Source: Sarea resinae (taxonomy: Eukaryota). Taken from it: 64,000 bases of DNA. The stretch covers positions 372,001 through 436,000 of the forward strand of contig JAPEUD010000006.1 in the NCBI GenBank assembly GCA_026026165.1, read 5' to 3'. The notes beneath the pieces were generated by a model, which was not told where the DNA came from, did no database searches, and saw only the letters and a program-made list of their open reading frames with translations. The position numbers and the translations under genes were made by a program. Below, one piece after another: positions 26,701 to 46,141 of this stretch (position 1 is its first letter; every line of letters starts with the position of its first letter).

Positions 26701-29700
26701 TGAACATCCACAATCTCTTTCTCGCGACGCAAGTATTTGATCACTTCTTGGATGTTTTCGAGCTCCGAGCCAGGAGTGACGTTAGATTCTTCGTTTTCTC
26801 CCAGCGAAGCACGGTTCTGCTGAAGAGCTGATATTTGGCTTGTAACACTCTCGAGCTGTTGATGCAGCAATTTGTTTTGAGCATTGATATCCTCACGTCT
26901 GGTCTTGAGTTCAGATAGCTCTCTTTCGTAGTGACTCCTCGTCTCCGCCCAGCTCTCCTCGCTCTGAGAAAGCGTGGCTCTGGCTGCCTCCGCGTCCGTC
27001 CTCAGCGCGACGACTTCCGTCTTGAGCTCATTGTATTCGCCGCGCACTTTCTGAAGAGCCTTGGCTGCTTCAGCGTGCTTGACCAGCTCATTCTCGTAGT
27101 TTTGTTGTGCCCGCTGTGCGATCTCCGCCTGAGCTTTGAGGTCCTCCTGGTGGAATTGCGCAGCCGCAGCGTTGCGTTCGGATTCGTCCTTCACCCTAGC
27201 CAGGTCTGCTTCAAATTGTGCATGTTGCTCTTCGACCTTTCGAGCCTGTTCGGCCTGCTCTGATCGCAGGGTGTTGAGCTCAGTGTTCGAATTAGAAAGC
27301 TCGGCTGTGATATCTTCAACTCGTTGTTCGAGGTCGCGAATCTTAGAGTCTTTTTCTTCAAGGAGCCGATCCATTTCTGCTCGGTACTGATCTTGCGTCT
27401 CGTTGAGACTTTGCAGCTCCTCCTCACTTGATTGGCTAATAGCCTTGTACTGCTCAACGGCAGCTTGAGCGTTCTCGAATTCGCCCTTGGCAAGTTCCAG
27501 GTCGCGCTTGAGCTCGGAAACTTCCATTGCGAGTTCTTGCTCTCTCCTCAGAGCGTCCTCTTGGTCCTCTTCCGGCTGGTCAGTGTTCTCGGCATTAGAT
27601 GTTGAACGGGGCGTTGGTCTTGGCTGGAGAACTTGGACTCTCTCCTCGGCGCTTCGTAATTCGATGGTCATTTCGTCAACGCGTGCTTGTAGATGATCAC
27701 GGGTGGTCTTTGCAGCGACTAGCTCTTCACGAATAGAGCCAAGGCTGGCAACCAGATCATCAATCCGCTGTCGGTTTTGATTTGCCTCATATTCTCTTCG
27801 GAGAGCTGCCTTCTTGCCGTCCTCTACCTCGTCGTTTAATTTCCGCTTTGTCGCCTGTAGTTCAGATGCCAAAGCATCGACCCGCTCTTGAAGCCTCCTC
27901 CTCGTTTCCGAAGACGATAGTTCCCGCTCGTTCAGCAGGTTTTGGAGATTCGTATTCAGTCCATTGAGCCGGCTCTTCTCATTGAGCAAAGCCTCGTTGT
28001 CCTCATTCAATCTCTTCTCGATCTTCTTCCACAAGTCTTTCTCCGCCTTGAGATTTGCTGTCTCATTTCGCATGCTCTCCGCCAGCCCTCGTGCTTCCAC
28101 CAACTCTTCGGCCACTTGCTGAGTCTTCAAGTCTTGCTTGGCAGCACTCTCGGCAAGGACCTGGGAACGCTTTTGAAGCTCGCTGTTCTCTGACTGTAGC
28201 ATGCTGAAGTTGGCCTGTAACATGTCGTATCTTTCCCGAGCAAGCGTGACTTGACTAGAATAGCGAGCCGAATCCGCCTGGAGTTCACTCTTATCCTTTG
28301 CAAGCTTATCAATCTGATCTTTGAGGGCTCTGAGATCAGTGGCAGCCTCCTGTCGATAGGCATCGAAATGGCTTTGCAGATCTTTAAGAAGCTTGGCGTA
28401 ATCGCCCAGGTCCTTCGCGCTAGGCGACTCCGCGCTGTGCAGCAAACCGTTTGGAGGAGTGGCTGGGGGGGCACCGCCGTCAATAGACTGGCCGAACATG
28501 GATGCTAGATCAGAGTTGGGTGGTATCTGTCCACGGTGTGAGAGCATGCGTCTAAACATATCGCGTTCCCTAATATAGCTCTGTGATTGGGTGACCATGG
28601 ATTTCATCTCGTCCTTATAGCGTTCCACTCTTGAACGAAGCGTTTCCAACTCTTCTCGCTCTCCCATTCCGGCCTCGGCTGTCTGCTTAGCTCGTGATTC
28701 TTCAGCTTCCATCTTCTCACCAAGCTCTCTGGTGACCCGTAGCAGCTGCACATTCTGGTCCTGCAATTCGCGGATGTTCCTGAAAACGGTCAAACGTTGG
28801 CTGATGAATCTATCAGTATCCGTCATTCCTTCAAGTGCGTCTTCGTCAGCCTCGCCGCGAGCGATGCGTTCCAATTGCATTTGCTCGGCAGCACTGAGAG
28901 CGGTAAATCCTTCATCGTGGGAGTGGACTTCCAGAAGGAGAAGTTTGATCTGTGCGCTAAGATCACGCAACTGTTGTCGTAGAATATCACCTTCTCTTGT
29001 CAAACCTTCCACCTGGCCTTCCCACCTCCTAGATTCCTTCTTTGCTTCGTCCCGCTCTTTCCCAACCTCGTCCAAGTATGAGGATAATTCGGCCACTTCT
29101 CCCTGGAGCTGGTCATGCTCGGCGTGAAGTTCTTCGATTTCGGGTTGTTTTAGTTCAAGATCCTGGATCATCTCATCAATAGTAGCACTGAGCTTCTCAT
29201 TGCGACGACGTTCCATGTCAAGTTCGGCCTTAGCGTTGGAGTACTCCGTGTACATCTGGGTGAAGTTCAAGCCCCCCTTTATCTTTGATGCGCCGGGAGA
29301 AAACGCTGAAGCTCCAAAGCGTGTAGGTGTGCTGGCGCCGTCACCGTTCACACTTCGTCGGGGCGTGCCTGGAAGGGATGCGGCAGTCTGTAGATTCGAG
29401 ACGTCGGCTTCTAATCTTTCGATCTGAACCTCTAGCTCGATAATCCTCTGCTCGGCCGCTTCCTTCTCTGATCTCTCGGTTTCAGCCTCGGCGCGAATCT
29501 TGCCGATCTCGTCTGCTGCATCTTCCTTGGCTTGCTCCAAAGCATTTTGCAATTCCTGCATTCGTTCCCTCGCGGTAGTTGCAGCATTCTTCTGAAGCTC
29601 GGCAAGACGATTTGCACTGTCAAGCTCGACCTTGAATCCTTCCTCACTCCTGGCGGCTTCCTCCTGCAATCTCTGGATCTTGGCGAAGGCATCGTCCGCC

Positions 29701-30557
29701 TTCTGTCCCACTTCCTCGAGTCGTTTGCGCAAGGTCGTCTCGGTACGCTTCAATGACTCGACGGAAGAATTACTCTCCTCATTGAGACGCTGCAGCTCGG
29801 CGATTCGAGCGCCCTTCTCCTTGCGATATTTGAGATATTCGGCCGACTTCGTCTTTAGTTCTGACTCGAACCATTCATTGTTCTTTTTTAGGAGCTCGAT
29901 CTCTTGTTGTAAGCTCTGTTCGCGGAATTTCGAAGTCGTGGAGGATGAACTGGCCGTCTGTAGAGATTGTTCCAAATTGGATAATTCCCGGCGTAGCTCA
30001 ATGGTCTTCTGATGTTCGCTCGACAACTCATCCGCGAGTCTGTCATAGGCAGTAGACTTTGATTCCAGTAGAGACAGGGTGTCGCGATTTGAGGATTCAA
30101 GAGACGATATTCGAGACTTCAGTGCTTCGACCTCAGAGGTAGATGTGGAGGCCGAGGATTTCAGATTTTGGAGTTCCGACTCGAGTGCCGATCGCGCATT
30201 CTCTGTACATGACAGATGTCAGCCTATGACAAGCCATCGCCATCTCGCCTTCAGAGAGCTCCTACCTTGCTCCTTTAGCTTTCCCCTCACGTCTGAAACC
30301 TCCTTCAGACTCTTATCAACTGTAGACTTGAGCGCACGGTTCTTGGTCTCTCCACTTCGAACCGCATTCTCCAATTCGACGTCTGTCCGTAATTTCTCTG
30401 ATCTAAGCTCCTCATGTTCTCGGGCCTTGGAGGCGACGCTTTCGAGGAAAGACTTCACGAGCTCAGTCGTAGGTGCATCAATTAGAGCGGACAGCGTCGT
30501 TTCTGGCACGGAGCAGTAAGACGAAAGAAATGGCACATCAACAGTCGCGGCCGCCAT
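23766..30557 (-). CDS. MLP1: Nuclear basket coiled-coil nucleoporin Mlp1/Tpr (3 exons: ~30557-30266, 30202-25716, 25664-23766)
   Basis: More than 2000 aa of coiled coil with Tpr/Mlp-type segments (QLRDLSAQIKLLL, ISQRLTVFRNIRELQDQN, AQQNYENELVKHAEAA, ELNLFRESSITLRNE, WQQRTQNILQKYDRVDP). Q/G/RGG-rich tail with a basic NLS-like end. GT-AG introns join the three ORF-track pieces. Confidence 0.93.
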
Positions 30558-30918
30558 GATTGCTGACGATCGGTAGTCGAGTATGCTGTTGTTGAGTGTT
30601 GGCGAGAGCTATGCCAGAGAGAGGATCGTCCTCTCGTCCCGCAATTGAGCTTCCCTCAGCGCGTCACGGACCCTAGGGCGTGCGCAAACGTGAGAAGTGA
30701 ATACTCCTCAGTCCGGTGAAGTTCAACTATGACATCTTCACGAAAGTCGAGAGGTCATTGGGAAGGCTGGCGTGGTGAGCCCTTGATGAGTCCGATGAAT
30801 GAAAGCGATTGTTTCTAGTGTTTCTCTGACGGCTTCAATGCTTGTTTGTCTCGGGCCGTCTGTGCTCGCTACACTGCACACATGGCACCCTTAGCTTACC
30901 GAAGCCATCCTCTGAGGC

Positions 30919-30927
30919 TCCAGCTTA
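30919..30927 (+). repeat. Left target-site duplication TCCAGCTTA
   Basis: Identical 9-mer immediately outside both TIRs. If the TIR is extended by the A/T pair, the TSD reads as the 7-mer CCAGCTT. Confidence 0.85.
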
Positions 30928-30948
30928 TTGCCTCAGTATACTCAGACC
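30928..30948 (+). repeat. Left terminal inverted repeat
   Basis: Reverse complement of 38851-38871 with one mismatch. Confidence 0.9.
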
Positions 30949-31199
30949 TCGCTTGGCGGGTGGTCCGCTGCGCACGGACCACTATTGCCTAAATAGGCAA
31001 TCCACCAGCCAGAGGTCTGAGGCAATTTCTCTAATTTTCTATGTCAGCAGCGGCTAATTTGTATAGAGTCAGCGATTATTAGCAAGCATTAATTTCAAAC
31101 TATAAGATATCTGCAACTACAACGCCTATAGCAGTAATAGCTATATTATCTGAAAGCTACACTTCTATTCTATAATTAATTACTATATCTGCTTCTAGG

Positions 31200-33900
31200 A
31201 CTAATCCTAATGTGCAGAGGAAGCGCTAGCAGACAACGACTATTTCTGCACTAATATCTGCGCTAACCACGCTACAGACATTCTCTTCTGCATTGCTAAC
31301 CCTTATATTAGCGCTGTTAGCATCAAATACTAATTAGTCTCTGCTAGAAGCGTTAGCAGATAAGGTTATACCTAGCAGAATAAGTGCAGAGGCTAAGCTC
31401 TACTACATTATTGCTAAGTTATAGGAGTAGCAAGTAACGCCTTTAACTCTTATAACGTTCTAGCTAGAACATATAAAGGATAATTAAAACTTCTGCTAAG
31501 CTAAGCAAAGGAAAGACCTTATTAGATTAGTCCTTAGATTTAATAATATCAACAATCTTCTGTTAGAAGCAGACAAAGGCCTAGCTGTAGTAATAGACAG
31601 CAGTATTAGCCTTATCTGCAGCGAATTAAACTAGCTACAGAATCGTTGTCAGCTGTTTAGCTAATACAGCAAAGACTTAGACTTTAAGACACTTAATATA
31701 ACTCGCTCTACAGGCAACATCTTAGAGATAGCGCCTATGTTGTCACAACTAATTAGCAGTGCAGCTGAATCGCAGTATGCAGCGAAACATTAGCAGAGGA
31801 CCTATTTAGCAGACGCTAGACGACTTGTTATAACAGCATCTATGTTCTGTCTTAGCTACGCTAAATTGTTAATGAATTGCTTTGCCTGCCTACTAGGATT
31901 ATATCTATAAGACTCTAGGTTAACACAGCGTGCGCTAAGCACGCTCTATAGCCTAGGTCTAGTAGATAGATATCGTATAATAGACATGTAGAAACAGCAG
32001 ATATTAGATTAGAGCAAGGAATGTGTCCCCTAAACGCTACTATTAGCTAGGGCTAACTAAACAAAGGCAGATATCTGCTTAGCCGCGCAGACGTAGGACT
32101 ACACTATTATATATAACAACTTTAAATAGCACGCAAAAACACAGCATTAAACAGTTAGTTATACTAGAACGCTCTACTTATACACTACTAGAAAACTCCT
32201 ACACAGACAATGTTTACTAAGCAGAGGACTAACGCAGGACATGTTCTACTCTAATGTTTGTGCTAATGTAATGACTCTTCTAGAAGCAGACAGAAATCAA
32301 GTCGATAAAACGCAGGCGCAGATATTAACGCATTTAGTTGCTAGTGCTATTTGCACAGCATGTCTAGACGTTGTTAATGCTATATTCGCAGCAGATATTA
32401 ATGCTTTCCTGCAAATGCCAGCTGTTAACGTTCTTCTGCCCTTGCAAATAGAGTATATAACCCTTAGACTAATCACTAAATCTAAGGGCTCTGTAGCAGG
32501 CACATATTAGGTGTTAGATAACATCTTTGCTAGCTAACTAGAGAAGGATACAGTCGACTTTAAAAACAAGTTAGTGTTAGTATTTAGTGACTAGAAAACA
32601 ACAGCGCTAATCTGCTCTTATTAGCTTAAGCGATTAGAGGTAGCAGATATATATAATCGACTTAATTAGATATTATCAGTACCTAGCCTCTTTTACTTGC
32701 GGATAAACCTGCTGGCATTGATTGTTAGATCGCACTACAGCAGACAGAGCAGTCTCAACTAATACTCGACGTTATATTCGCATATAAATTACCTTAGTTG
32801 TCAGAATATACCTGCAGATAAAGCGCTGTTTCACTACTAGTAAGAGCTTGTTCAACATAGCTTTCAGGCTAGAATAGTTGCACTATTTATATCATAACTG
32901 TCTGTTTTATATAGACGACAAAGTAAAGGCTAACTAGATAAGATGCTCTGCAAAATGACTCCTGCAAACTTTCTTGCTTAGGTAGAGAATATCTGCAAAA
33001 CTATCTTCTTTGCTGCTAGCTATTAGGAGTTAGCTTAATATAAGAAGGATATACATAGTAGAGATAGAGACATAGTAGGTGCTAGTCGAAAGCAGAATTA
33101 TAAGCAGCAGCATCTCCTGCATGATTCTAAGTATTTCAATCACATTTGCTTTCTGCACTATATAGAAACATACTTGACCTTAAGGCATGCTATTAAATTC
33201 GCTGATATTAGTTTGCTCTGCCGCGCGATTACCTACAGCTGTCTGTATTTCAGCAGAAGTGGTTCGCATAACTATTTGTAAGAGATAATCTGATTTTAGC
33301 AGCTAATATTAACGCTAACGTGTGATCTATGTCTGTAAGAGGCTATACTTGCAAATAGTCTTATCAGCAACTACAACAAACTAGGTGCCTTTATAGAAGT
33401 CGATTAGATAAACAAGCTGTTAAATCTAGAATTAAAGACTATCTTACAGACTAAGGGCAATTCAACGTTTGATATAACAGCTTTATTTAAATAGTTAGTG
33501 CTGCTAACTAGCTATCTTGCTCTGCTTTGTGCTGAGTTTAAGTTTGTATTTAGCGAGCAGACAAACACTTCTTATACTAACAAATCTGCTGCTGCAGATA
33601 TTAGGAGTCTTGCAGATATCATTGCCTAAGACTCTATAATCCGCTGCAAGGATAGGATGTCTGCATATATAGCTCTAGGATTGTTGCAATTAGGTGTTAT
33701 ACAACTAGCTTAGAAGAGGCTGCCTACGCTTGCTAGCAGATATATAGATCTAGATAAGGAGGGTATTTCTAATATAGACTAACAGATAGTAGAGGCGTTA
33801 GTAGGCCTTAATATAAGTATATCTTAGCGGCTTTATTGTGATTTGTATAATAGCTGACTTTATTGTAGGCACTAGATACCTGATTAGTATAGCAGACAAA
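31200..33900 (+). pseudogene. DUF6589-like (Academ-type DDE) transposase pseudogene; boundaries approximate
   Basis: One frame (that of ORF 32241-32510) reads YNNFK* (32112; YDNFEQ after reversing C>T/G>A), VFSD*KTTALIC (32580; VFGDQKT...R), PSLFYLRIN (32682; PGLFHLRMN), HAIKFADISLL, SGSHNY and FIEVD*INKLLN (33390; D...E..N). No frameshift between these motifs. Confidence 0.75.
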
Positions 33901-34299
33901 CGCACGATTATACTACTTCCTAGTTATATACTAAATCATAATTGCAATTTGATTCTATCTACTATTATATGCCTAACTAGCTAGCTGTCAGCTTAGCTAT
34001 GTCAGACTAACAGCCTATGCAGCGGATAATGTTTAGGATCTTAAGGATATCACTTGCTATACACAACTACCCTGCTCTTAGATCTGTAATGTCTGCTTGT
34101 AAATCAGCTATTAAGTCATTGCTGACAGCGGCTGCAGCAGCAGAAGGTCCTGCAGACGCAGAAGAAGGTGCTGTTACAGCGACAGTATGTCCTGCAGACG
34201 CAGACAAAGCGGCTAGCTAATAAGAAAGACGTTAGCAGGGCTAGGTTTTAGTAAGAGGTGAGTCGCTAGCTGTGTCTTTATCTAGGTCATTATTATTAA

Positions 34300-35440
34300 C
34301 AGCTTCCTTAGTCTTCTGTTGCTAAACAATTCGTCAGCTAACCTAGTCTAATATATATATGCATCGAATATACCTTCTGTAGCCTTTTGCTATTGTCTAA
34401 CGCATTATTCTTACGCTTTTTGCCTTTGTTAAGACGCAAAGAGGTGCAGACAGCCTTCTTAATATGTTAGCTATAGCGGATATTCACTATAACATACCAC
34501 TGCTATAGCAGATATAGCGGATAGACATACTAGAGGAGTATTATTATTATTCGCATTAATCACACACAGTTTTCCAGCCTAGCGACACCCTACGCAACTG
34601 TCTCCTAGCTTAACTATATGCTTCTTAACTTCTTAGCAGTAGACCTTGCAAGGGATGCCTTTTTTAACACATTGTTCGCACTTGTAGGTTAGCTCTATAC
34701 CCTAGTATAGGTCGTTGAATATCAAATCAGCATAGGCATAGGCTTTCTAGCAAGTCTCCTTTAGCCTATTCTAAACAGCGTCTGAACACGTTAGCTAGTC
34801 TAGTTTAGTTAGACGTGCAATAAACTATTGTTTATTATAAAATCAGCATTACGCACAGTTCTCTGCAGCAGCAGATAATTAGGCCGCGGCGGCAGACAGG
34901 CTAGCAGCAGACAGGTTAGCGGCAGACAGGTTAGCAGCAGACAGGTTAGCGGCAGACAGTTAGGCGGCGGCAGACAATTAGGCGATAGCAGCAGACAGCT
35001 TATCTTCGAACAATTTCAAAGCTTTAGCATTGTTATTATCCTCTAAGACAAACCCTAAAGACTAGTCTAACGTATACTCTGCTATCCCTTTACCTTTGTC
35101 CTTTAGCCCTGTATCTAAGTCATCTTTATCTGATGATTTATCTGCTAACCCTTTACCTTTGTCCTTTAGTAGCGCTGTACCTAATTCACCTTTGTTAGAG
35201 AGTTTGTCTGCTGCCGCCCTTTTAGTATATTGTTTAATTTCTGCACGTGGCAGCAGGCGGATTAGGAAGGGATATTCTGACTAATACTTGATTGCAGAGG
35301 CAGCAGACGACTTAGCAGAGGCGGCAGACAAAACAGCAGCAGCAGACAAGACAGCAGCGGCAGCAGATAAGACAGCAGCAGCAGCAGAGACAGCAGCGGC
35401 GGCAGACTCAGCAGCGGCAGCAGACTTAGTCCTAATTAGA
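34300..35440 (-). pseudogene. Third transposon-borne gene relic with a Zn2Cys6-like cluster and low-complexity repeats; boundaries approximate
   Basis: Minus strand 34680-34564 reads CEQC-VKKGIP-C-x17-CVGC-R*AGKL-C. Upstream lie 15-bp tandem repeats (34890-34960), a duplicated KDKGKG-coding segment (~35087, ~35149) and GCA-rich repeats (35300-35430). Confidence 0.55.
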
Positions 35441-35899
35441 AGTCAGTTATTATATCTAATATAATAAAGAAAAGTTTAAGATCAGGTTAGTTAAACAGTT
35501 AAAACTTACATAACTAATGTTAAGGTTTCCTCTCTAATCAGACAAAAGTCATTAGCAGCTGACATACTATAAAGTTGCTAGTAAGAGGTTAGAGTTAGTT
35601 AGAAGTGTCAACTTATACTAGCCTTAAAGCACCTTTAGTACTATTTGCAACGTTCGACAGATATTGCTCTAATACACTGTTCTTAGCGAAGTCATCAGCT
35701 ATAATAATAGCAAGGATAATATAGATATCAGTTATTAATAATTGACAGGCTGTAGCAGAGTTATTAAACGAAAGAGGTGCGATGTTAACAATGTTAATAA
35801 GGTTAACAAGGTGATAAGGTTGATAATATTTGCAGGTCAGCTATATAAAGAAGTGGTTCTTTGTTTGAACAAAGAAATCGCTAGTCAACTATTCACTTA

Positions 35900-38400
35900 A
35901 TTTATTAGGCGTACTCGTTTGCTAGATGCAGAAGTTAATAGCAGGCAGAGGTGAGTATTTATATCTACCTTAGCTAGAGGCTGACGTCTCTTATATAATC
36001 TATTAGGTTTGTCTAACAGAGTGTCAACTTGTAGTATGTGACGCGGATTAATGACAGGTGGCAAATCAGCTAGCTGACTAGATATATCAGATGCAGATAA
36101 TAAGGACAAGTTAGCTACAGCTAGTATTAAGGCCGCGGGTTGCACAGTCAAATCCTCTGCGCATATACAGGCTAACAACGCACTTAATTCAGACTAGCTA
36201 AGATCACTGCTAGCCTATTCTGCATATCTTAGCAACAAACCTACATTATAAATACTAGTCTTCTAAACGTATATCCGCTGTATAACGTCCTCTGATATTG
36301 TATATCCTGCTATAGAGACCTAGGTCATGTCCTTGTACTTTGTCTGCGTCTGCTCTAATATCTACTGCTTAATCTAAACAGCTATATGTTTGTTAGGGTA
36401 GCTAGATCGCGGCGTAATACCTGAGTTCAGCAGTTAAAAGTATAGCTTCCTAGATAAAACTAGCTCTAGGTTGCAGTTCAAACAGCAACGTCTGCGCAGA
36501 ACAGGTTCCTTAGTGTTTTTGTCTGCTAGCTGCTTATTAAACGCCTGCATAAATATTGCCTGCAAGCAGCCTTTCTCCTTGTTTGTAAAATTGTATAGCA
36601 GAAGAGGAAGCTCTACTCGCTGTTTGTATACATCTTTGTGCTTGACTTTCATAGGCTAAGGACCTATTTCAGCTAGTACAGCAATATACAACCTCTCTAG
36701 ACTTAGCTCTTGCATTATCCGCTGTTTAATATCTGCGTTAGCCGCGTTGTCATCTGATAATGCAACAGAGGAGACAGCAGAATCAACACTTATACTGTTA
36801 GAGTCTGCGCTTTTATATGCCTGCTCTTAACTTAATAGACTTAGCTAAGACAAGGAAGTTAATGTCTGCACAGCAGATGTCTGCGTGCTAGATATCTGCG
36901 ATCTTAACTGCTAGCTATTATCACTACCTGCTTGCCTTGCCCTAGTCTGCACTCTAGGACCTTTACACTACTTATTAATAAAGAAAATTGCCTCTCCTTT
37001 CTAACTAGCACCTTGTGCTGCCTGACTAAATCGTTGCTATACTAAGCTTAGAAGGCGATCACAAAAGATGCTAAGATAAACTACCTGCTTAATATCTGCG
37101 ACATCTGCACCCTAGGCAACTGCATCTGAATAGAGCAACACTCTTATTCTTAACTGCAGCTGTAAAAACTCTGCCTATATCTGCTCTTTGTCTTGCTCTG
37201 CAAGGGTAGCGTGGTACACATTAACTGTGTGCATTACTAACTGCGCTAAATATCTGCGGTCCTTTAGCCACTAACAGACCTTGTTGCAGGCTTCTATAAG
37301 CTGCTGTTTACTGTTAATAAATATCGCTGTCTTTAGGATCCGCTGCAGAGTTAGACAGTAACGTCGTTTAGTATAGCTACTATTAGCAGACAGCATAGGC
37401 GTCTTAGATTCTATAGCTAGCGTGGCTGATGCAAGAGATTCTAGCCTAACTGCAGCAGATGTTCTAATGTTTGCAGATATAGTTAGCTAGGACCTAGCTA
37501 TATCTGCAGTGTCCTTAGCACAGCCTTTAATAACAAAGTATAGGCAGTCAAATGACTTCTTATTACTGCAGCAGATATATTCGCAGATAATAGCTAGCTC
37601 TAGTCAATCAATTAAGGTGCAGATCAATTTAACGTCGTTATTAAAGCAAGCAAGCTAGTATACCTCTGCAAAGGTGTTGTTATCTAGTGTTGCAGTGCAA
37701 GCAAACTAGGGCTTGTTTCCTAGAAATCTGCAGAGGATACTAAGCTCAGCATAGGAGCTGCGAAAGAAGGACTAGTTTGAAATTAGATAAACCTTATCTA
37801 GCACTACAAGCGCTATCTGCTCCTGCAATTATATGTCTTTCTATATCCGCTTGAAATTTGTGCTAACTACAAGCTCTAGCGAGATTAGGATGTGTGTATA
37901 TTTGCAATTACAGATATCCTTAAGGAGTTAGTTGTTATTGTTCTAACCTGTTATATAAACAGGCTTTATACCTGTAAGCTCCTTTATCTGCATAGTCTGC
38001 TTATCTCTAATCTTATTTAGCAGAAGAATAACAATAACAATAGCGTTACAGACTAGACATAGAATTGACTGCATAATTATACTCTTGCTAAACAAAGTTT
38101 TAGCAACTAGAAAGAGATCTTTCTTAGTGTATATCAGCTAGCAGAGCGCTTGCAGCTGACCTATCCTTCTGCTATATAGGTATATCGCGCAGATAATTGC
38201 ATTAATCGCTGCAAGCTGTGCCTGTTTATCTGTATAGTAGAGCTCTTAAAGTCTGTCTTACAAGGCCTATATTTGACGCTCTTTATCTGTAGTAAGGTTG
38301 CTGTATGCTATTGCTTCTGCTTACAAACGTTCTTTATCTGCAGAGGGTAGCTGTAGTAGGCAGACATATTTGCCCTAGTTAGAGCGTCTTCTTTAAGGTA
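35900..38400 (-). pseudogene. RecQ-like SF2 helicase pseudogene; boundaries approximate
   Basis: One minus-strand frame reads DLFLVAKTLFSKS (Walker A, ~38104-38081; AKTSFGKS), ILLLNKIRDKQ (motif Ia; PLNKIGDEQ), YTHILISLEL (SPE), VVLDKVYLISN* (DEVH, ~37790), FACTATLD (III), VYHATL, SDAVA*GADVADI (V), *QRFSQAAQG (VI; WQRFGRAARG) and the Zn region GCLQAIF...CCLNCN (ORF 36434-36652, same frame). Confidence 0.88.
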
Positions 38401-38850
38401 TCTAGCAAATATAAGTGATCTAATAAGGAGACTATAGCTTTTTCTAACCTTATATAATTCTCTGAAGTTGTCACAGCTGATATAGTGCAGGCGTTGTTGT
38501 GATATTAAGGTAGAAATAATTGTCTTATAGTAAATCTACTGCTTATTAGTGCAAACAGTTATTTTTACTTTAAGGCATAAGATAATCTAATTAACTGCAC
38601 CTGTTACAATACAATTAGGACTATTTGATAGCCCTATTAAAACTGTATAGATAATTAGATTTCTATAGCTGCAGCAGATATAGTTGTAGATATATGCTAA
38701 TGAACTTGTTTGCTATACAGATGAAAAATCTGGTTTTGCCGCAAATTTTCAGAAAAATTGCCTCAGACCACATTTTCGTGGATTACCCTTTCGGGAATGC
38801 TTAGTCATTCATCCGAACGGGCCGGATGTTAATCCGGATCCACGTGATGT

Positions 38851-38871
38851 GGTCTGAGTCTACTGAGGCAA
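38851..38871 (-). repeat. Right terminal inverted repeat
   Basis: GGTCTGAGTCTACTGAGGCAA, the reverse complement of the left TIR with one mismatch. Confidence 0.9.
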
Positions 38872-38880
38872 TCCAGCTTA
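38872..38880 (+). repeat. Right target-site duplication TCCAGCTTA
   Basis: Identical to 30919-30927. Confidence 0.85.
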
Positions 38881-39150
38881 TCACTCTCTGCTATCGCAAG
38901 CACATCTTGATCATTGTGATCACTGCCACAAGCACCGTCATCTGCGACTCAGAGCATCGTCGCTGGTCGACTCATCAAGTTTCGTTCGGATCTCGCAGGT
39001 CTAGACTGCGGTTCGCTTCTTGCCTGTCTTCGTTCTAAGGTTGCCCGTGTAGAGTCTTGATAATCTTTCATCAACGTCAACGAGCACCCAATTCCACGTT
39101 CTCTTTCATTGCCTGCTTCTCGAGACCTCACCTTACTCCTCGTTGCCATC

Positions 39151-40032
39151 ATGTCGTACCTTCAGAGCCAGCTCGATGCTTTCAAATCCGACCTCACCTC
39201 ATCCTCCTCGAAGATCGCCAACAAGCGCACGCTTGCCGCCGCATCAGGACCCTCCAGAACCACGCCCTCCCCCGCGCCCTCGACCGCCTCAACACCCAGC
39301 AAAAATGACCTCAAACGCAAGCGGCCCGAGGCGCCTGTGATTCCGTTCTCTCAACCTGCAGATACCGGTACCGGCAGACATATCATGACCCAGGTCACCT
39401 ACGCAGTCGAGTACCTCAAATCGAAAGACAAACCGCAGACGCTCAAGGATATATTCCGCTACCTTTCGCTGCACAAGTCCGACGAGCTGAACAGGAACAA
39501 TCTGGGCAAGATCCTACAGCAGCACGATCGCGTGGAGTTTGATCCCGCAGGTGGAGGTGGAGAGGGCGCTTTCAGATTCAGGCCTATCCACAATATCCGC
39601 TCCGAAGACCAACTACTCCGCTTCCTTCAATCGCAGCCTACCGCGCAGGGGCTCTTTGTGCGTGAGCTCAAGGACGGCTGGCCGGGCGCAATTGCGACTA
39701 TTGATGATCTCGAGCGCAGAGGGAAACTACTGGTCATTCGCAACAAGAAAGACGGCGGGGCGAAGATGGTCTGGGCAAACGATCCATCGCTGTCCCAACA
39801 TGTCGACACCGAATTTCAGAACCTCTGGCATAAAATTCCCTTGCCCAAGACGGCGGCCGATTTGATGCAGGAGTTGGAGAAGGCGAACTTGACTCCGACG
39901 AGCAAGAAAGAGGCGGTTATGATACAACCCAAAGAGAAGACCAAGAAGAAGCGGCCAGCAAAGAAGGGTGGGCGCACGACAAATACTCATATGATGGGGG
40001 TTTTGAGAGACTATTCGCATCTGCAGAGATGA
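39151..40032 (+). CDS. TFA2: Transcription initiation factor TFIIE beta subunit
   Basis: Intronless ORF from ATG 39151. Motifs TQVTYAVEYLK, FRPIHNIRSEDQLL, ELKDGWP, EFQNLWHKIPLP and a basic C-terminus RTTNTHM. Confidence 0.92.
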   Translation: MSYLQSQLDAFKSDLTSSSSKIANKRTLAAASGPSRTTPSPAPSTASTPSKNDLKRKRPEAPVIPFSQPADTGTGRHIMTQVTYAVEYLKSKDKPQTLKDIFRYLSLHKSDELNRNNLGKILQQHDRVEFDPAGGGGEGAFRFRPIHNIRSEDQLLRFLQSQPTAQGLFVRELKDGWPGAIATIDDLERRGKLLVIRNKKDGGAKMVWANDPSLSQHVDTEFQNLWHKIPLPKTAADLMQELEKANLTPTSKKEAVMIQPKEKTKKKRPAKKGGRTTNTHMMGVLRDYSHLQR

Positions 40033-44381: not shown

Positions 44382-45049
44382 GGGGCGCAAAGGGGTTTTG
44401 CGATCGGTAAGTGTTTTCCTTCTCTCGATCTTTCTATTGCGTGCAAGTCGGCTGATGAAGTTTTGGGTCTCTTGAGCAGAGAATCTTCAATCTGGGATTC
44501 TCTGCATCGAGGCATTTCTCCGGCCGGTGACAACATGGGTTTTGAGGCGCGAGGGTGCTAGTGGACTTTTAGATATCCTGTAAGTCTTTCCGTCTCTCGT
44601 CTCTGTACGCGCGCTCTTTTTTCTCGTCGTGAGAGTATGCGCTGATCATTCTTTGTCCTGCGCACAGAATCTTCAACCTGGGATCCAGGTTAGCAAATAG
44701 CGATGGAAGAGCGAAGAGCCAAGAGCGAAACTTGTGCGGTTTTCTAGAGTTGGGGGAATAAAGGTTATACGCGGTCCTGTCCTGTCCTGTCATGTCATGT
44801 CATGTCTGTCTGCTTGTTTTTTGGGGTTTTTACTTTGTTGGTGGATGGGCGATTACGATGTTAGCATCATTGATTTTGTCTTCTCTTCTGCTACAGCTCT
44901 TCTCCAGATCGAAATAGAATCGCTATCGCAATCGCAATCGCAATACTAGCATTGTCAACACATCACTTCCCATCATATCATTTACTTACTTTACTCTCGG
45001 AGCCGCGTGATAGAACAAGAAAACAAGAAAACAAAGAAAACAAAAAAAG

Positions 45050-45880
45050 GGAAAAAAGAATAGGGGTGCTAGGGCTTAGGTATTAGGTAGGATATATACC
45101 TAGAGGTAGAGGAATATATATGTATATATATATATATATATATGAGGTAGTGTGTAGGTTGTGTTATAGTATAGTATAGTATAGCATTGTATACTAGGTA
45201 GGTAGGTAGGTAGTATAATGCTCTAGAGGTAGTTTAATACTCTAGAGGTACTGTATAGAAAGTAGGGGAGCAGAAGAGAGTAGGTAGAGGTAAGAGAGTT
45301 AATGAGTAGAAGCAGAAGCAGAAGCAGAGAGAGGTAAAGAGGCTAGAACGCGAGGTAGAGAGCAAGGTAAAAGTCAAGAGAGTAGAGAGAGTAGAGAGAG
45401 AGAGAGAGAGAGAGTGCAAGGTAGAGTAGGTAGAGAAAGGAGATATAATAAGTCTTTCTAGTCTAGCACTACCTTATACACACACATATATATACACTGT
45501 ATATATATACAATATAGAGAAGGAGAGATAGAGAGAGAGAGAGAGAGAGATTACTATTTCTATATAGATATCTAAACCCTAAAGGTACTTTAGATAGGTA
45601 GGAGTGTAGACCTAGAGAGGGTGAAAGGGCGTTAGAGAGAGAGGTAGAGAGCTTCAAAGGGGCGAGGGAGGTAGAGAAAGATAAGTCTCTCTGGTCTAGT
45701 CTAGTCTAGCACTGTATTATATATATATATATACTGTACTCATACACATACACATACACATACACAAACGCACACAGAGAGATAGCCAAGCTAAGTAAGG
45801 TCGAGCAAGACGAGATAAGTCTCTCTTATCTAGCCTAGCACTGTATACACACACTTCACAGAGAGAGAGAGAGAGAGATG
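45050..45880. repeat. Compound microsatellite block ((TA)n, (AG)n, (TAGG)n, (CATACA)n) with three degenerate ATAAGTCT...CTAGCACT modules
   Basis: Read directly; modules at ~45448, 45681 and 45815. Confidence 0.8.
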
Positions 45881-46141
45881 TTGCTATTATACATGGATAA
45901 AAGAAGACGGATGATGGTCGTCTGGGCACGTCTTCTATAGAGAGGGTAGATAGACATGCGATCAATTCGCTCCGGATGCAAGAAGAAAAAGGGAATCTCG
46001 GTGTTTGTTCCGACGAGACGGCCCGTGGACCTTGTTTCCATACAATTCCAAGCAGACAAAACACACAAACGAATGCCATCAATCGTAACAAAAACCACCA
46101 CAGTCCAACAGCTTCGGCGGCAAAAGACCTTCCCAGACACA

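Follow-up and report, generated by a model that had tools for sequence, protein, structure and literature searches.

A decayed two-gene DNA transposon of probable AcademH type in Sarea resinae

We analysed a 64,000-nucleotide stretch of Sarea resinae DNA (contig JAPEUD010000006.1 of assembly GCA_026026165.1, positions 372,001 to 436,000 of the forward strand; hereafter the window, whose numbering is used throughout) and found that positions 30928-38871 are occupied by a complete DNA transposon, bounded by terminal inverted repeats (TIRs) and flanked by a target site duplication (TSD). The element measures 7,944 bp, forms one full-length unit between its inverted ends and carries the relics of two convergent genes, one encoding a transposase with the Pfam domain DUF6589 and the other a RecQ-like superfamily 2 (SF2) helicase. 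Both genes show decay of the kind left by repeat-induced point mutation (RIP). We consider the locus probably to be one full-length dead copy of a two-gene cut-and-paste transposon of the AcademH type, within the Academ superfamily.

The left TIR (30928-30948, plus strand, TTGCCTCAGTATACTCAGACC) contains two tandem CTCAG-type hexamer motifs and matches the right TIR (38851-38871, minus strand) at 20/21 positions. Each 21-bp TIR is directly abutted by TCCAGCTTA, which stands at 30919-30927 and again at 38872-38880, and the two 9-bp copies agree at 9/9 positions. The initial annotation of this DNA had described 21-bp TIRs and a perfect 9-bp TSD, and both stand exactly as described. By a rough arithmetic estimate, the chance of meeting such a combination of TIR and TSD anywhere in 64 kb is <1e-6. 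The termini of the element read 5'-TT...AA-3'. Further inside lie two subterminal repeats of 37 nt (30996-31032 on the left, 38751-38787 on the right), which form an inverted pair with 78% identity and each contain an inverted, inward-facing copy of the terminal motif, TTGCCTCAGACC, at 31014-31025 on the minus strand and at 38758-38769 on the plus strand. TTGCCTCAGACC has 2 matches in the whole window, both of them subterminal, against an expectation of 0.33, and 2 matches were reached in 5/100 shuffles. No other copy or fragment of the element was found elsewhere in the window.

To locate coding remains, the six frames of the element were translated with X at stops and scanned against Pfam. 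The plus frame of 30930 matched DUF6589 with an E-value of 5.9e-38 over approximately 32313-33551, and beyond this domain and Helicase_C nothing else was matched at E<=1. The transposase relic, delimited by the Pfam match and by its one-frame alignment, extends on the plus strand from 31185 to 33870, its 3' end being approximate. It is colinear in a single frame with full-length relatives of 830-1,060 amino acids and needs no frameshift, which bears out the plus-strand transposase relic of the initial annotation. An ATA at 31185 takes the place of the start methionine of one relative, and the 960 codons contain 48 stops (27 TAG, 19 TAA and 2 TGA), which at well-conserved columns replace glutamine (present in 14/16 or 15/16 relatives, for example) or tryptophan (14/16). 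Compared with the relatives, YDNF has become YNNF, GDQKT has become SD-stop-KT and the glutamate of DRLNE has become lysine. An exhaustive HMMER search with the relic recovered 471 proteins at E<=1e-3, 212 at <=1e-10 and 33 at <=1e-30, the best at 3e-89; a protein Atlas search gave no usable match. DUF6589 was the sole Pfam family in 18 of 20 relatives scanned, the remaining two being N-terminal fragments with no match, and it was likewise the only family in 61/61 relatives with precomputed Pfam annotation.

An AlphaFold model of the intact relative P0009, built from a 65-row alignment, had a pLDDT of 80.8 and a pTM of 0.81, and its strands and helices succeed one another as in an RNase-H-like core that a large helical insertion divides. 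Foldseek returned weak E-values for this model (best 7.7e-3). With VIA-align the first 32/32 rows were DDE transposases or recombinases; the P element was aligned over 333 residues (Z 10.8, rmsd 5.5) and Hermes over 304 residues (Z 10.4, rmsd 6.8), and Z-scores of 7.8, 6.9 and 5.4 were obtained for ISCth4, RAG1 and Transib, respectively. The model places a candidate catalytic triad at D290, D453 and E698 (P0009 numbering): D290 belongs to the conserved DNF motif in strand 285-296, the nearly invariant D453 follows strand 448-452, and the nearly invariant E698 sits in helix 693-710. Taken together, the model suggests that DUF6589 is the catalytic core of a DDE transposase.

The second relic, that of a RecQ-like SF2 helicase gene, occupies 35900-38401 on the minus strand, in the minus frame of 38869, and converges on the transposase relic. 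Its Pfam match, to Helicase_C, has an E-value of 1e-3, or 2e-4 with a shorter piece, and falls under the Pfam cut-off. All of its top 16 sequence matches in the PDB are RecQ-family helicases (RecQ1, RecQ5 or RecQ), the best with a weak E-value of 6e-5. A word-indexed protein search with the damaged relic found no match, which we ascribe to its mutations; tblastn comparison with the intact helicases of relatives reached E 4e-58 (to L008, one of the metagenomic loci described below). The relic is colinear with these intact helicases of 671-835 amino acids from IP-stop-R (MPRR in the relatives) to the C-terminus near 35900, again with no frameshift needed, and an ATA at 38401-38399 occupies the position of their start methionine. 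Motif I (38119-38081), motif II (37813-37784, where DEAH is now DKVY) and motif VI (37036-37007), all on the minus strand, are recognisable, and motifs III and V and the remnant of a CCxxC zinc site are discernible as well. The alterations of these motifs are of the G-to-A or C-to-T kind, DEAH to DKVY being an example, and there are 27 stops in 666 codons. The convergent minus-strand RecQ-like helicase relic proposed in the initial annotation is therefore upheld by its PDB matches, its tblastn similarity and its colinearity with relatives. The same annotation held that the motifs of each relic keep to one frame broken by transitions only: the single frame proved right for both genes, while the restriction to transitions is beyond proof without the ancestor.

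Intact relatives were obtained by scanning JGI metagenome contigs with the alignment of intact transposase relatives, which yielded 40 loci. Twenty of these loci extend at least 900 bp beyond the transposase on its downstream side; 15 of the 20 encode a helicase homologue on the strand opposite to it, the arrangement seen in the window, and represent about nine sequence lineages. Both genes stand between the two termini in L005, L006, L008, L012 and L020-L022. The intact relatives have two genes, a transposase in two exons and a convergent helicase, 100-400 bp apart. Their helicases match DEAD, Helicase_C and, weakly, RecQ_Zn_bind, and for an intact helicase the first 37 PDB rows are all of the RecQ family (best 2.6e-28). 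Residues 252-268 of P0009, modelled at low confidence, coincide with a gap between two transposase open reading frames (ORFs) in the relatives' DNA (L005, 1421-1620); this gap is probably an intron that automatic gene prediction failed to remove, and the window's relic stays in frame across the putative intron gap.

The ends of these relatives resemble those of the window element closely. The soil-metagenome relatives have termini of the TTACCTCAG... type, as in the window, and their left (TTACCTCAGTTTCCTCAGAC...) and right (...CTGAGGTAA or ...GTCTGAGGAAACTGAGGTAA) ends follow the same design as TTGCCTCAGTATACTCAGACC. In L005, L008 and L020 the terminal motif recurs, facing inward, at a distance of 58-81 nt from the ends. 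L020, L021 and L022 have 6,038 bp in common at 100% identity within different flanks, and L005 and L006 have 6,191 bp in common at 99.97% identity; such identical 6-kb copies in different flanks indicate that the family moved recently. L027 and L028, whose contigs come from two data sets and are 100% identical over 2,144 bp, carry the right end (at 2234) and the left end (at 721), respectively, of a short form of ~2.4 kb. Its transposase is truncated and the helicase is missing, and it probably represents a single-locus, non-autonomous product of deletion. In L020, two more TTACCTCAG... copies (2475-2585) stand just upstream of the 6,038-bp element, which thereby looks to have inserted beside or within the terminus of a second copy or a solo terminus.

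Elements of the AcademH group carry a helicase and make 9-10-bp TSDs, and those of the AcademX group carry an XPG nuclease and make 3-4-bp TSDs, according to PMC10045372. The 9-bp TSD, the separate helicase gene and the DUF6589 blocks that match the Academ RNase-H profile make AcademH the best-fitting known family for the window element, and judged from sequence its AcademH-type identity is quite likely. The profile in question (RNase_H_Academ, supplement of Muszewska 2017, PMC5751038) has 465 states, and it was compared by eye over 6 of its ~20 parts. States 2-6 read f-D-N-w-D, with F at state 5 almost as probable as W, where the DUF6589 relatives have YDNFD; states 186-192 read v-v-l-t-g-D-Q, where the relatives have LVYGDQ; and states 444-454 read W-a-y-v-h-l-D-e-a-l-E with D and E invariant, where the relatives have W(x3)DRLNE. 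These three blocks follow one another in the same order, 163 and 245 residues apart in P0009 and 188 and 263 states apart in the profile. The window element agrees with AcademH as published in joining a DDE-type transposase to a separately encoded SF2 helicase, in its TIRs and 9-bp TSD, in its fungal host and in the absence of XPG, which was found neither in the six frames of the element (E<=1) nor in the 20 scanned relatives, the 61 Pfam-listed relatives or the ORFs of L005, L012 and L020.

Several observations weigh against this assignment. The match to the Academ profile consists of three short blocks recognised by eye, at the level of motifs and with no score; profile states 127-177 and 407-432 could not be convincingly aligned to DUF6589 by eye, and the conserved proline at state 9 has no counterpart in the DUF6589 relatives. 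The TSD of L005 (GCCACCAA) is 8 bp long, as is CCGGATCG, which L028 has beside its left end and L027 beside its right end, and both lie outside the published AcademH range of 9-10 bp. In seven other end pairs of relatives no TSD was found, and pairing all flanks against all by inspection gave these two 8-bp cases only; we assume that the contigs concerned were assembled through identical copies. Five of the 20 loci with enough downstream DNA (L010, L028, L030, L037 and L040) have no helicase. The AcademH-like identity advanced in the initial annotation consequently holds for the helicase, the 9-bp TSD and the motif-level catalytic blocks, with the 8-bp TSDs of the two relatives falling outside it; the window element itself further differs from AcademH as described in being a copy inactivated by RIP.

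With AcademX the element would have the superfamily-level transposase signature in common, if Academ membership holds, but AcademX has 3-4-bp TSDs and a transposase fused to an XPG nuclease, neither of which occurs here. The structures that match the model best are those of P element and hAT (Hermes) transposases, which likewise have an RNase-H-like core with a large helical insertion, but the identity is 9-11% and P and hAT elements have no helicase partner. THAP, Tnp_P_element, BED and hAT-dimerisation domains were not matched in the 20 scanned or 61 listed relatives, nor were hAT, THAP or KDZ domains in the frames of the element or the relatives scanned. On the model, the fold similarity (Z about 10) therefore speaks for a common class of DDE transposase, not for membership of these groups. 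Helitrons combine a Pif1-type superfamily 1 helicase fused to an HUH nuclease and lack TIRs and TSDs. The window element resembles them in bringing its own helicase, but this is a RecQ-like SF2 enzyme, accompanied by a DDE-type transposase, TIRs and a TSD.

An alternative that we regard as unlikely accepts a real two-gene transposon but takes DUF6589 for a superfamily of its own, or for a deep unnamed lineage outside Academ and AcademH, whose resemblance to the profile is limited to the generic surroundings of a DDE triad. Academ membership depends on the three short blocks, and the nearest folds are those of the P element and hAT enzymes, groups whose TSDs measure 8 bp. The 8-bp TSDs of the two relatives fall outside the 9-10 bp given in PMC10045372; moreover, the Pfam entry lists DUF6589 as of unknown function, and the one paper found to mention the domain (bioRxiv 10.1101/2025.10.24.684071) draws no link to transposons. 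Against this, the blocks agree beyond the triad itself (DN-aromatic-D, GDQ and D-x3-E after W), in order and in rough spacing, and the RecQ-like helicase, the 9-bp TSD and a fungal distribution peaking in rusts all fit Academ and AcademH as published. The latter pattern comes from a 2017 survey (PMC5751038), which records low-copy Academ RNase-H domains "in most taxa" of fungi, rusts having the largest numbers. It is correspondingly improbable, if conceivable, that the DUF6589-plus-RecQ elements ending in TTRCCTCAG(N3)CCTCAGAC constitute a separate lineage without a name, perhaps even a superfamily, of DDE transposons that are assisted by a helicase and make 8-9-bp TSDs. Such a lineage would be common among soil fungi of the Pezizomycotina type and, to judge from the 100% identical 6-kb copies in different flanks, would be active in them to this day.

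Much more likely than such a separate lineage, at about even odds, is that the family is simply an uncatalogued one within AcademH, with the link between Pfam DUF6589 and the Academ transposase so far unwritten; the literature that we searched contained no paper linking DUF6589 to a DDE or Academ transposase, and Repbase or the supplements of Kojima 2020 might list the family. The suggestion in the initial annotation that an ascomycete version may be undescribed was not borne out, since AcademH is reported from Basidiomycota, Ascomycota and Mucoromycota in PMC10799480 (2024, citing Kojima 2020). The element is accordingly, as far as that source goes, a member of an already described kind.

Base composition sets the element apart from its surroundings. 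Its GC content is 0.388, compared with 0.51-0.53 in the 20-kb flanks, and the low-GC block ends sharply at the TIRs; its TpA/ApT ratio is 1.47, compared with 0.64-0.72 in the same flanks, with equally sharp edges at the element ends. The flanks carry no RIP signature, and the intact relatives have GC contents of 0.43-0.51. The terminal ~100 bp on either side (30928-31030 and 38760-38871), with GC contents of 0.56 and 0.49, do not share the AT enrichment of the element as a whole (GC 0.39), so RIP may have faded before the edges of the repeat, or the ends may have been protected, or they may differ between copies.

Sister copies were sought in public reads, and the contigs of sequencing run X1 were placed along 30419-39380. 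The stretch is present in this one run; two other runs of the same study come from other organisms and gave next to no coverage. The two X1 contigs that cover the flanks are single-copy, with depths of 337 and 360; the left one stops at 30957 and the right one at 38842, in both cases exactly 30 nt within the terminus. A break 30 nt inside the ends (k-1 for 31-mers) is what a de Bruijn graph produces where the terminal sequence recurs elsewhere with other flanks. Within the element, 674 X1 pieces were placed, of which 298 were 99+% identical, 194 were 95-99%, 93 were 90-95% and 89 were <90% identical. The variant places comprise 109 A>G, 98 T>C, 96 G>A and 82 C>T changes and 61 transversions, so that 385/446 are transitions. 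The source organism thus holds several transition-diverged copies with these exact ends. The RID/Masc1 methylase subfamily required for RIP is documented in Pezizomycotina only, according to PMC5751038, and transitions, TpA excess, a Pezizomycotina host and duplicated copies are all found here. RIP-like decay with sister copies, as the initial annotation had anticipated, is accordingly seen in the TpA/ApT ratio, in the preponderance of transitions and in the contig breaks inside both ends.

In RIP-affected DNA the ratio (CpA+TpG)/(ApC+GpT) classically lies below ~1.03. The element has 1.11 overall, above that value, with 0.84-0.98 in 4/16 windows of 500 bp and 1.19-1.35 in the flanks. The summed X1 depth inside the element is 1.7-13x the flank depth, which is not a copy number, and X1 may be the very sample behind the window assembly, so it is not an independent confirmation of the locus. 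The index of 1.11 is also what speaks for ordinary age-related mutation of an AT-rich element in place of RIP. That explanation is nevertheless very unlikely: the TpA/ApT ratio changes at the element ends, 86% of the differences between copies are transitions, 46/48 of the transposase stops are TAG or TAA and stand on glutamine and tryptophan columns, there is no frameshift in ~1,700 codons, and the intact relatives are not AT-rich to this degree (GC 0.43-0.51).

A KolobokH element, from the fungal Kolobok lineage with a RecQ helicase, is hardly to be considered. It would equally be a fungal DNA transposon carrying a RecQ helicase, and one red-algal Kolobok has its helicase on the complementary strand; as described in PMC9587614, however, Kolobok elements have TTAA-specific 4-bp TSDs and 5'-RR...YY-3' termini, KolobokH has its helicase downstream of the transposase, and a C/DxxH signature is common to Kolobok, hAT, P, MuDR and Dada, none of which features is found in the window element. 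Here the TSD is 9 bp (TCCAGCTTA), the termini are TT...AA and the genes are convergent, and C/DxxH was not seen, the conserved H488 being preceded at -3 by G, A or S in the aligned relatives. The TSD and the termini in particular contradict KolobokH.

Equally implausible is the notion that the relics adjoin by chance, an element with a transposase alone having come to lie beside a decayed RecQ paralogue of the host or a captured gene, so that the helicase would not belong to the mobile unit: 5/20 related loci and the short L027/L028 derivative do have no helicase, but both relics lie inside one unit bounded by TIRs and TSD, the low-GC block spans both and stops at the TIRs, the convergent pair is kept in 15/20 loci of about nine lineages, and seven of the loci, named above, hold both genes between their termini.

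The convergent 3' ends of the two genes are separated by a non-coding spacer (33901-35899) containing tandem repeats, which Tandem Repeats Finder resolved into a 15-bp unit repeated 5.3 times at 34889-34968 and 18/39-bp units at 35294-35425. The spacer gave no Pfam match and no tblastn homologue in the 40 related loci. Stops make up 6.5-9.9% of its codons across all six frames and no frame stands out, whereas the true coding frames of the transposase and the helicase contain 4.9% and 3.8% stops against 4.7-10.9% in the other frames. The three-gene architecture proposed in the initial annotation is thus not supported: the central 2 kb has no Pfam match, homologue or low-stop frame, and the intact relatives are two-gene elements. 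A Zn2Cys6-like gene on the minus strand at ~34680-34560 (C-x2-C-x6-C ... C-x2-C-x6-C) was considered and rejected, as its 17-residue middle loop is too long and it has no Pfam match and no counterpart in the relatives. A perfect 16-nt inverted repeat, GCAGACGCAGACAAAG, at 34194-34209 and 36338-36353, reaches from the spacer into the 3' region of the helicase gene. It is not the boundary of a nested insertion, because the helicase homology crosses 36338 and runs down to ~35900, and it is probably a by-product of GCAGAC-rich repeats.

The element splits an upstream region of ~640 bp common to two divergently transcribed host genes, a TPR/Mlp1-like gene at 28000-30560 (minus strand) and a TFIIE-beta gene at 39151-40029 (plus strand). 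The TFIIE-beta protein shares 71% identity with its Xylona heveae counterpart, and the named matches that follow are lichen-forming ascomycetes, which places the host in Pezizomycotina. At 45000-46000 the window contains a low-GC (0.39), strongly G-/A-skewed microsatellite block with (GA)n, (TA)n, (TAGG)n, (ACAT)n and similar repeats, which is unrelated to the element.

Based on these data, a history of the element can be proposed. In the active state, the DDE transposase (DUF6589) would have bound the TIRs together with the inward-facing subterminal repeats of their motif, excised the element and inserted it at a staggered cut, of 9 bp here and 8 bp in the two relatives, whose repair would generate the TSD. 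The convergent RecQ-like helicase would have acted as a conserved accessory partner, possibly by unwinding the ends or by helping repair. The family would then have multiplied in the genome before RIP struck its copies. The resulting C-to-T and G-to-A changes would have lowered the GC content from ~0.5 to 0.39, removed both start codons and created 75 stops, and would also have altered motifs I, II, V and VI of the helicase and, in the transposase, the putative catalytic residues, from D to N and from E to K. The present copy cannot encode anything, while its nearly intact ends would leave it movable, in principle, only by an intact copy elsewhere.

The locus provides a clean and complete reference copy, with ends, TSD and both genes, of a helicase-bearing Academ-type element from a poorly sampled ascomycete lineage, and illustrates how RIP hides such transposons from ORF-based annotation. 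It goes slightly beyond what is known in the link from DUF6589 to a DDE transposase of the Academ type, in the intact and apparently active relatives from soil metagenomes and in the 8-bp TSDs of these relatives, which slightly broaden the published 9-10-bp range. For Pfam DUF6589 it points to a function, that of a DDE transposase catalytic core, and if DUF6589 is a transposase domain, the enrichment reported for it in bioRxiv 10.1101/2025.10.24.684071 may be no more than a sign of how many transposons are present. For a first experiment on the part that the RecQ-like helicase plays in AcademH transposition, the intact and identical relatives from the metagenomes offer candidate material.

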